Both the position numbers and the translations under genes were made by a program. From NCBI GenBank assembly GCA_030295235.1, contig AP026127.1, positions 1,116,001 to 1,180,000 of the forward strand: 64,000 nucleotides of DNA. Reading direction: 5' to 3'. Positions within the stretch are counted from its first letter, which is position 1, and each line of letters starts with the position of its first letter. The notes below the pieces were generated by a model. It was not told where the DNA came from and did not search any database. It worked only from the letters and a program-made list of their open reading frames with translations. The DNA is from Fistulifera solaris. Taxonomy: Eukaryota. Positions 18,691 through 21,853 of this stretch are shown here, one piece after another.

Positions 18691-19455
18691 TTTGTTTTCC
18701 TTTCCTTGTTAGGTGTGAAGATTCTTCAATAGAAAGCTTGTGATGATGTGATGGAAGACGACAAAAGGTTTTGTTGTGGTTGTCGACCTGTCGACCTGTC
18801 GACCTGCTCCGTATTATTCTTCCTGTTTCTCCGTTTTTGTACACGTGGTCACCGGTCATAAAGTTCCACGTTCAATTTTCTGACAAGACTACTCTTTAGA
18901 TATAGTCCTAAAAATGACCTTCAAGAAGTCATCGCCAGTGCTGATAGTTAATACTACGACGGCCTCAGAATACGGTACTGCTTTTCGGTGTTTTTGTCAC
19001 TTTGTCATTATTTCTCACTAGCCGCCTTCGGCGTCTAGCCCCTGCAGGGCTTTTTTCGTTCTCGCCCTTCCCGCAAGCGGGGGCTCGATCCCCGGGGATA
19101 GCGTCACACCCGTGATTCGGACACCCGGGACCAGCGTTACGTTACGTGACACACACACGGACACAGCGCGCTATTATAATAGAGGCGGGCTAGCCTGCGG
19201 TAGCTTTTTTCGTTCTCGCCCTTCCCGCAAGCGGGGGGCTCGATCCCCGGGGATAGCGTCACACGTATTCGGACACCCGGGACCAGCGTTACGTGACACA
19301 CACACACACACACACACACACACACACACACACACACACACACACACACACACACACACACACACACACACACACACACACACACACACACACACACACA
19401 CACACACACACACACACACACACACACACACACACACACACACACACACACACAC

Positions 19456-19561
19456 GGGATTTATCTATTGACTCATGACCATCCTCTAGCTCGTTTCTCA
19501 CTCATGCGCATCGGTACCCAGTCTTTAAGTAAAATTAATCGTTACATAGTCACACCCGTTT
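19456..19561 (+). mobile_element. 5'-truncated 3'-end copy of the CRE-like retrotransposon
   Basis: gggatttatc...cacacccgttt matches the element 3' end at ~21665-21770; (CA)n on both sides. Confidence 0.8.
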
Positions 19562-19671
19562 CACACACACACACACACACACACACACACACACACACAC
19601 ACACACACACACACACACACACACACACACACACACACACACACACACACACACACACACACACACACACA

Positions 19672-19798
19672 CAACAACATGGAATTCCTACACGGGATTT
19701 ATCAATTGACTCATGACCATCCTAGCTTGTTTCTCACTCATGCGCATCGGTACCCAGTCTTTAAGTAAAATTAATCGTTACATAGTCACACCCGTTTT
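19672..19798 (+). mobile_element. Second 5'-truncated 3'-end copy of the CRE-like retrotransposon
   Basis: caacaacatggaattcctacacggga...cccgtttt is near-identical to ~21643-21770 with a few differences; (CA)n on both sides. Confidence 0.8.
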
Positions 19799-20207
19799 CA
19801 CACACACACACACACACCCGTTTTCACACACACACACACACACACACACACACACACACACACACACACACACACACACACACACACACACACACACACA
19901 CACACACGGGACCAGCGTTACGTTACGTGACACACACACACACACACACACACACACACACACACACACACACACACACACACACACACACACACACACA
20001 CACACACACACACACACACACACACACACACACACACACACACACACACACACACACACACACACACACACACACACACACACACACACACACACACACA
20101 CACACACACACACACACACACACACACACACACACACACACACACACACACACACACACACACACACACACACACACACACACACACACACACACACACA
20201 CACACAC

Positions 20208-21770
20208 GCATACTTACACTCAACAACTATCACCATCATCCATTATATGTTATGGAAACTAAAGCTCACGATGACACAACAACATGGAATTCCTCGTGTT
20301 GCTGTTAAGTACCCTCAGACGGCATATGCAGGTTTTAGCAAATCACTCCAAATGGAGTGGCAATACTTGCAGCGAGTTGTACCGGAAAGTACACAGTATT
20401 TCAGCTCCACTAGAAAAAAGCAATTCGAGAGGACTTCTTACCAGCTCTTTTGGGTGAGAAAGGTCCAGTCTCGGAAGAGCTTCGTCTGATTACGACACTG
20501 GCGACTAAAGCGGCGGGAATCGCAATTTATGACCCTTGTCGACGGGCGTCACCCAACTATGAAGCATCGGTCCAAATTACACAGCCCCTCACATTGAGCC
20601 TTGAAAACAATACTGTATTAAATATACCGGATTACCAATCAACTGCTGCAGGGGAAAGGGCAGCAGCAAAAGTGTCCCGCTTTCACGCTGATCTTAAGAT
20701 TTTTGAAGAGATTTGCGAAAATCTGAAAGATAATGAGGATGAGAAGCGTCGTCTGAAAAGAACAAAGGAAACTGGAATATGGCTCTCAGTGTTTCCGACA
20801 CTTAATGGTACCGACCTCTCGGGATGAATTCAGAGATAATATTCGGATCCGACTTGGGCTTGCACCGAAAGGAACCGAGATAGAATGTGATGGATGTGGT
20901 AAACCTTGGTCGCTTGCCCATTCACAAATTTGTTCCAAAGGAGGCCTGGTTACAATGCGGCATGACGATCTGAAAGAGGAATTTATGTCTCTTTGCAAGC
21001 AAGCTGCCGTCCCAGTAAAGTCTACGGTGAACCAATCATTAACTCAAACCGTAACAATGCTGAAACAAACGCGCGTGAAACAGAGGACATGACTGAACTC
21101 CGAGGAGATGTTGCCGTGCATGGATTCTGGAACATCAACAAAACCACAATTTTTGACGTCCGGTGTGTGACCTAGATGCCACGTCGTATATTAAGAAAGA
21201 CCCACAAAAGGCATTTGCTCAGATGATAAAAACAAAAACGACAAAATATGATAACGCTTGCAAGCTTCGACGAATGGACTTCACGCCCTTGATCTTTTCG
21301 GGTTGATGGACTGTTGAGTAAACCAGCTGTTGAAGCGTCCCGCAGGCTTGCTCGTATACTGTCGGGTAAAATGGGGACGATCTTATTCGGATACATGCGG
21401 CTACGTCCGTTCTCGTTTGAGCATTTCGCTTGCTCGATCTGCGAGTATGCTCATACGAGCTCCCCCGACAAAGAGGAACTGTTCGTGCTCCTCCGACTTG
21501 GGAAGATGGACGGGCTTGGTCCTGTACTAGGCTTCACACAACAACATGATGTCGACAAACTACTCCAAAAGGAGCATACTTACAATCAACAACTATCACC
21601 ATCATTCATTATATGTTATGGAAACAAAAGCTAACAATGACACAACAACATGGAAATCCTACACGGGATTTATCTATTGACTCATGACCATCCTCTAGCT
21701 CGTTTCTCACTCATGCGCATCGGTACCCAGTCTTTAAGTAAAATTAATCGTTACATAGTCACACCCGTTT
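20208..21770 (+). mobile_element. 5'-truncated CRE-clade non-LTR retrotransposon (post-RT region, CCHC finger, restriction-like endonuclease)
   Basis: Fragments YPQTAYAGFSKSLQMEWQYLQRV, AAGIAIYDP, GIWLSVFP, EFRDNIRIRLG, CDGCGKPWSLAHSQICSKGG-RHD, RGDVAVHGFW...IFDVR and YVRSRLSISLARS; a 3' UTR ending directly in (CA)n. Confidence 0.8.
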
Positions 21771-21853
21771 CACACACACACACACACACACACACACACA
21801 CACACACACACACACACACACACACACACACACACACACACACACACACACAC
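21771..21853. repeat. (CA)n microsatellite
   Basis: Pure CA run immediately after the retroelement 3' end. Confidence 0.99.

Follow-up and report, generated by a model that had tools for sequence, protein, structure and literature searches.

The window analysed here, 64,000 nucleotides (nt) of the Fistulifera solaris contig AP026127.1 (positions 1,116,001 to 1,180,000 of the forward strand, assembly GCA_030295235.1), contains a long CA microsatellite interrupted by several pieces of a retrotransposon without long terminal repeats (non-LTR). We consider it likely that these pieces belong to a young and dispersed family with just one open reading frame (ORF) and a restriction-like endonuclease (RLE), which would insert by target-primed reverse transcription (TPRT) with a preference for CAC-like sites and would cluster in CA tracts carried by a Helitron-like repeat. 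An initial annotation, made from the letters of the window, had read the locus as the work of a CRE-clade element specialised for CA repeats. Across the assembly, the family shows instead a relaxed, strand-specific preference of 3-5 nt for CAC-like sequence. Long CA tracts draw it several-fold more strongly than scattered sites do, but far from exclusively.

A relaxed and strand-specific target preference

Outside the window we found 70 termini that share one 3' end and vary in 5' truncation, with aligned lengths of 13-373 nt and no tail. Because this set came partly from a pattern that itself requires CACAC, flank statistics are given for 61 unbiased termini, obtained with a terminus pattern blind to the next 18 bases. 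This pattern drops about one fifth by design and gave 64 matches (2 in the control), 3 in the window and 61 elsewhere. A CAC lies at most 6 nt from the terminal CCGTT in 29/61 termini, against a local background of 6.8% (p 3e-18), and a CACAC at most 8 nt from the end in 14/61, against 0.7%. The first 6 flank nt are free of G in 51 of the 61 (background 26%), and GTG is found in none. At many junctions, 1-3 extra T or A separate CCGTT from CAC. The bias is unchanged in the 30 copies of at least 25 nt. The median aligned length is 24 nt, 36/61 copies measure 30 nt or less, and a few of the shortest termini may be chance matches or interrupted copies.

The same termini do not support the proposed specialisation for CA repeats: (CA)5 or longer adjoins 0/61, and a single one has (CA)4 on its 5' side. 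Away from the long-tract loci only one terminus adjoins (CA)4, although the assembly has 142 starts of (CA)6+ tracts. For this assembly, that is the outcome which the initial annotation had itself named as refuting its reading. Searching with the element's final 211 nt gave 42 matches, and none of the 27 loci outside the window locus, among the 30 fetched, has a (CA)n flank. One copy that is 100% identical over 163 nt (L003) lies in unique DNA. Duplications of at least 6 nt flank 2/70 insertions, which is no excess over the mean of 1.57 for shuffled pairings. At four of the 70 sites the flanks also match an empty repeat unit, and in three of these four the CAC-like flank is part of the target. 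Seven of the 70 insertions (L005, L025, L118, L121, L127, L139, L157) lie in a dispersed minisatellite that contains CACAC and TTTTCTGG, with one strand relation throughout; a similar array occupies 49157-49245 of the window.

Long CA tracts as hot spots

Tracts of (CA)15 or more are rare in the 51.7-Mb assembly: 22 tract starts at 15 loci, about 4.0 kb in total, 12 of the 15 loci being inside the Helitron-like repeat. Four of these 15 loci, which make up 0.008% of the assembly, hold eight element ends. In a long (CA)n tract, CAC-like sites are densely arrayed; such tracts, mostly borne by the Helitron-like repeat, therefore act as hot spots. Besides the window locus, the occupied tracts are C19, where a 12-nt element end lies between 387 and 57 nt of CA; C21, where a 46-nt piece lacks the final CCGTTT and passes, by way of its own GTCACAC, into CA for 475 nt; and C25, with two CACCCGTT remnants, which may not be independent of the window locus since both contain the arrangement end-(CA)9-end-(CA)40. 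A diverged copy of the host repeat with a short tract (C41) holds another insertion. Targeting of CA tracts, as initially proposed, thus stands in so far as long tracts are favoured and falls in so far as the family is not confined to them. None of the eight termini that precede (CA)4 or longer belongs to a tract with 6-14 units, although such tracts have about 120 starts (142 minus 22).

The repeat that carries these tracts was overlooked in the initial annotation. DNA around the CA tract has at least 48 matches in the assembly, and the right-end motif of the repeat occurs 42 times. Read on the minus strand, the unit of ~165 bp starts with TC and ends with a hairpin and CTAG; the hairpin (-7.9 kcal/mol, z -2.2, 6/200 shuffles equally good) includes or abuts the terminal CTAG. 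Insertion is between A and T, with T after CTAG in 32/32 copies and A before TC in 30/33, a count possibly inflated by partial TAGA repeats. Canonical Helitrons have a 5' TC, a 3' CTRR end, a 3' hairpin and an A/T insertion site (in the part of PMC4067079 available to us), and judged by its ends the host repeat is a non-autonomous, Helitron-like element. It resembles the non-autonomous Helitrons with microsatellites, and the DINE-1/HINE Helentrons, in its ends, hairpin, A-T site and internal microsatellite, and differs from them in being only ~165 bp long; moreover, the canonical palindrome of 16-20 nt lies ~11 bp from the 3' end, whereas here the hairpin abuts the end. In most copies, among 30 loci examined, the internal CA run is 3-12 units long. 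An Rfam scan of 18500-22500 gave nothing near gathering score and so does not suggest a spliced-leader gene, or any other small RNA gene, in the flanking repeat. In longer versions (L042-L044 and L046, on G000 contigs C38, C30, C17 and C13), duplicated stretches of the repeat enclose a captured A-rich segment, and at two loci (L191, C25:296309; L192, C30:526483) the tracts are flanked by slipped boundary arrays such as (GGACACACAC)n.

Architecture and formation of the window locus

As initially described, a common terminus, CACACCCGTTT(T), runs into (CA)n four times in a single orientation, the ends being at 19561, 19798, 19824 (a remnant) and 21770, all on the plus strand (Table 1). The 9-mer CACACCCGT occurs five times in the window against 0.21 expected, a number reached in 0/100 shuffles; its fifth match, at 19105, lies inside the Helitron-like repeat and not in the element. 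An 11-mer of the retrotransposon's 3' end, GTCACACCCGT (21758-21768), recurs at 19103-19113 within that repeat, which may reflect chance or an earlier exchange of sequence. Every retrotransposon piece of the locus lies in the expanded internal microsatellite of the second repeat copy. The CA runs measure, as assembled, 160, 112, 19, 83, 278 and 83 nt, and the locus falls into two halves, each opening with the left boundary of the Helitron-like repeat and closing with an 83-nt CA run.

Table 1. Coordinates of the repeat, microsatellite and retrotransposon features at the locus (positions in the window)
Feature	Position	Strand	Remarks
Helitron-like non-autonomous repeat, copy 1	19018..19183	-	complete; short internal CA run; 5' TC, 3' hairpin and CTAG
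Helitron-like repeat, copy 2	19184..21879	-	tandem with copy 1; lacks terminal ~12 nt
(CA)n run, 160 nt	19296..19455	+	
Piece A, last 110 nt of element	19452..19561	+	100% identity to end of long fragment
(CA)n run, 112 nt	19562..19673	+	
Piece B, last ~130 nt of second variant	19669..19798	+	96% to long fragment
Remnant terminus CACACCCGTTTT	19813..19824	+	
(CA)n run, 83 nt	19825..19907	+	
22-nt duplicate of Helitron left CA boundary	19908..19929	+	rearrangement, no retrotransposon sequence
(CA)n run, 278 nt	19930..20207	+	
Piece D, 87 nt of 3' untranslated region (UTR), second variant	20208..20294	+	joined to long fragment
3' part of single ORF, amino acids (aa) 779-1190 of P0003	20295..21530	+	frameshifted in assembly
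3' UTR ending ...CATAGTCACACCCGTTT	21531..21770	+	no poly(A) tail
(CA)n run, 83 nt, then Helitron right part	21771..21853	+	

The stretch 20208-21770, first taken for one long copy, is a chimera: 20295-21770 is a 1476-nt 3' fragment, whereas the preceding 87 nt (piece D) are a separate 3'-UTR piece of a second sequence variant, 93% identical to 21574-21660. The fragment starts downstream of the reverse transcriptase (RT) core, at aa 779 of 1190 in the numbering of the full-length relative P0003 described below. It contains the CCHC finger and RHD initially reported, as C-x2-C-x7-H-x3-C and RHD within 20886-20966 (CCHC 20886-20933, RHD 20958-20966), and RGD...FD within 21101-21157 (RGD 21101-21109, D 21155-21157), in differing frames in this copy, with the stop at 21528-21530.

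At least two templates were used, given that piece A has exactly the sequence in which the long fragment ends, while B and D are of the second variant and have the GGAATTCCT form in common; piece B also matches a copy elsewhere in the assembly (L030, on another contig) at 100% over 83 nt and is thus not an error copy of A. The claim of several insertions holds to this extent, but four independent ones, although possible, are not required. Pieces A, B and the remnant start with CA microhomology; in piece A, unique sequence begins at 19456, and the ACAC at its 5' side is shared with the tract. The remnant would most simply be a 26-nt slippage or tandem duplication of B's end plus CA, and the 22-nt duplicate of the boundary, which went unnoticed at first together with the chimeric nature of the long copy, would need an event at the DNA level. 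Some of the pieces are probably DNA-level duplications. This is not unprecedented: MoTeR arrays grow by break-induced replication, D-loop amplification, slippage and transposition (PMC7367193, in the part available).

Contigs from two sequencing runs (X1 and X2) bear on the quality of the assembly here; no RNA run is among those listed for the sequence. An X1 contig, possibly of the same strain, covers 20215-21287 and bridges the junction between D and the long fragment; an X2 contig of 4137 nt extends upstream of 20293. Among the 12 differences listed, of 34, X1 and X2 contigs have in common at least eight indels relative to the window between 20403 and 21462, so that the frameshifts are most likely assembly errors and the insertion young.

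The element protein and its relatives

Five fragments of the element from the window gave no significant Pfam family. A full-length relative was found by searching with the RT of a sister-family protein, P0001: P0003, of 1190 aa, is 98% identical to the window over 137 aa and matches it from aa 779 through the stop. Its one ORF combines RT, CCHC knuckle and restriction-like endonuclease, the RT being absent from the window fragment. The RT profile RVT_1 scores E 3.5e-6, below the Pfam cut-off, and profile matches reach R2 at E 2e-9. The predicted model (pLDDT 80) has R2 proteins as its top seven Foldseek matches, with E 3.5e-18 for R2. P0003 reads C-x2-C-x7-H-x3-C-x8-RHD-x21-E-x23-RGD-x15-D, and in 36 aligned relatives of 120 listed the CCHC, RH and E are invariant and the RGD and D near-invariant, in keeping with the PD-(D/E)xK-type endonuclease initially recognised in the window. 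On these grounds the window element can be classed as a non-LTR retrotransposon with an RLE, as its motifs indicate. The alignment contains no conserved N-terminal Cys/His (CCHH) finger before the RT, and a loose pattern occurs in 4/121 proteins.

The family is a likely, though putative, member of the CRE clade; the CCHC-RHD-E-RxD-D signature is common to other RLE clades too. No named CRE reference is among the matches of the protein sequence and profile searches; the named relatives are diatom proteins, and ESM Atlas matches are only 'hypothetical protein, RVT_1' clusters. No full-length copy of the family was found in the assembly, in which no DNA match exceeds the window copy in length, and a search of the assembly with the N-terminal protein gave, among the best candidates scored, at most 53% identity, to other families. 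A metagenome scan with P0003 yielded six loci of 36-47% identity, and the contig of the full-length element itself is not among the six. In one metagenome relative (L198, 43% identity) the 3' region, at L198:1417-1636, finishes at the edge of its contig in CA/GCACAC repeats. The assembly also contains a sister family that is poly(A)-tailed and shows several clear duplications (of its 20 loci with an intact end, 17 are listed), meaning that the tail-less, duplication-poor pattern is family-specific. Other related families (L067-L086, L213-L218) share ~35-65% protein identity with P0003 in segments. Some of them approach full length, and one, with poly(A) tails and ~98% identity among its copies, is young.

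Proposed mechanism and alternatives

We propose that the family inserts by TPRT with a short, degenerate and strand-specific preference. The target would read C-A/C-C-A... (consensus CACAC, G avoided) right after the tail-less CCGTT plus 0-3 T or A; the bottom strand would be nicked, leaving a primer that ends in ...GTG(T), and reverse transcription would mostly abort within tens of bases. Long (CA)n tracts, spread mainly by the ~165-bp non-autonomous Helitron, would offer many landing sites. At the window locus at least two RNA templates were used. Slippage or recombination via CA microhomology, rather than separate insertions, would account for the remnant and the duplicate of the Helitron boundary, and perhaps for piece A. 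Several observations weigh against this proposal: roughly every second copy lacks CAC within 6 nt; 31/61 termini are shorter than 25 nt, and a few of them may be chance (control 2 vs 64); and in the empty-site comparison at L127 the neighbouring units lack CAC. In addition, CACAC density predicts 0.5-0.8 insertions in the 4.0 kb of CA when 3-4 loci are occupied (P 0.002-0.05), and occupied tracts exceed the others in length (335-735 vs 33-530 nt, P 0.009), which would fit element-driven extension too. The CAC bias itself would fit a cleavage preference and primer-RNA pairing alike, and no sequence among the short-read contigs of runs spans the whole locus.

A specialisation of the family for (CA)n microsatellites, comparable to that of CRE1/SLACS for spliced-leader genes, is highly improbable in our view. 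The eight ends in so small a part of the assembly would suit such a specialist, and so would the metagenome relative whose 3' region enters a CA-like tract (one of three ends inspected), but the 61 other termini, the unoccupied tracts of 6-14 units and the L003 copy in unique DNA all speak against it. Alternatively, the RT could lengthen the tracts: a (GT)n primer would pair with GUCACAC near the RNA 3' end and undergo reiterative, telomerase-like extension before, or in place of, copying of the element. The C21 piece enters its CA at GTCACAC as internal priming would have it, the occupied tracts are the longer ones, and short TAGTCAC repeats stand at the end of three copies (L127, L132, L219). 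We nevertheless hold such lengthening to be quite unlikely: 8 of the 12 long Helitron tracts (up to ~530 nt) contain no element sequence, which tells against the tract extension suggested at the outset; in two long tracts it is the boundary of the Helitron itself that recurs as slipped repeats; no long CA resulted from 14 insertions into unique DNA at CACAC; and longer targets are hit more often anyway. Internal priming was also sought in seven medium CA tracts starting with GT, TT or AT, drawn from 100 of the 142 (CA)6+ starts, and none clearly has element sequence, one being ambiguous. Equally doubtful is a three-way loop in which the RT would both build and occupy CA tracts, using its own CACAC as template, while the Helitron spreads seed tracts; C21 and the longer occupied tracts would then be footprints, and empty long tracts aborted events.

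The multiplicity of pieces could also be partly an artefact, two alleles or collapsed reads having been joined via CA runs. The window copy has indels absent from the X1 and X2 contigs and is thus poorly polished, the two halves of the locus start and end alike, and no listed contig spans it; against this, the variants of piece B recur in copies on other contigs, the X1 contig bridges the junction of D and the long fragment, and element ends occur in long tracts at three further loci, which makes an artefact unlikely. The alternative that we take most seriously, while still holding it to be on the doubtful side, is that the CAC bias comes from pairing of the RNA: transcripts reading through into CA, such as a source copy situated like the window one would give, would anneal to nicked ends in GTG, as in the model described for MoTeR (PMC3636483, in the part available). 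The longest copy in the assembly does end in (CA)41, the family has no conserved N-terminal CCHH finger, and C21 suggests that pairing can fix the start point; however, the extra T or A at many junctions would interrupt continuous pairing, and older, diverged copies have the same CAC bias. Pairing of this kind would alter one step of our preferred explanation, insertion by TPRT at CAC-like sites, and leave the rest.

Neighbouring features of the window

An enoyl-CoA hydratase family gene (ECH_1, E 1e-15), similar to the naphthoate synthase MenB, occupies 21972-22990 and starts ~130 bp past the Helitron end; it is split over two frames, perhaps through an assembly error. A tandem array with a 234-bp unit (7.4 copies, 93% matches) lies at 23558-25308, and further arrays are at 43072-43295, 48467-48980 and 51887-52677. 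Two neighbouring 4-kb blocks, 26001-30000 and 32001-36000, have strong and opposite AT skew (+0.2 and -0.3), such as long retroelement ORFs on opposite strands would give.

Relation to known elements and significance

Trypanosome CRE1 and SLACS have N-terminal CCHH zinc fingers, unlike the present family, which has no conserved one. With the CRE clade (CRE1/CRE2, SLACS, CZAR, Cnl1, MoTeR, FoTeR) the family has in common a long ORF, the only one, that encodes RT and, C-terminally, a CCHC-RHD-E-R-x-D-D endonuclease signature. Measured against the SLACS/CRE pattern, given together with that of MoTeR in the available part of PMC12857005, P0003 has all residues in order, with three spacers (x8, x23, x15) off by 1-2. 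Like the window locus, MoTeR forms arrays of 5'-truncated copies that are split by the target repeat and reshaped at the DNA level (PMC7367193, in part), and for FoTeR, as for this family, no clear target-site duplication is reported. They differ in confinement: CRE elements keep to their targets, spliced-leader genes or, for Cnl1, MoTeR and FoTeR, telomeres, while the family is dispersed with its preference of 3-5 nt. In how it works, the family resembles the target-specific CRE/MoTeR elements in a looser form. R2 has a single rDNA target and N-terminal DNA-binding domains. Among solved structures, R2 proteins (R2Bm, R2Tg, turtle R2) are the best sequence and fold matches to P0003, with which they share RT, linker, zinc knuckle and endonuclease at 12-16% identity.

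RLE elements at microsatellites have precedents. Togen, a fish element related to NeSL, is (TG)n-specific, and some HERO families target microsatellites (PMC4640811, in the available part), while Dong is associated with microsatellite targets (available part of PMC3636483). All three recall the family at CA tracts, although Togen is from another host group and (TG)n-specific, whereas the family is mostly outside microsatellites; CA/TG targeting as such has, given Togen, already been described. A brown alga has abundant CRE families (PMC12477816, in part); PMC5348765 and PMC9659126 yielded nothing specific. Our literature search found no description of a diatom CRE-like family with a CA/CAC preference, Repbase and many journals being outside its reach. 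Diatom CRE entries may exist in Repbase, and microsatellites are reportedly made by RTE elements according to one study.

The addition to what is known is modest: a type of endonuclease known for strict targeting occurs here with a relaxed preference of 3-5 nt, no tail and no duplications. Copies of 30 nt or less, 36 of the 61, would escape repeat annotation. CA extension by the RT, if true, would tie the priming of a retrotransposon to the telomerase-like addition of repeats and be of wide interest. P0003 provides biochemistry with an intact protein of full length, and since this family and its poly(A)-tailed sister occur in one genome, the two can usefully be compared, as a natural pair, for the gain or loss of target specificity.

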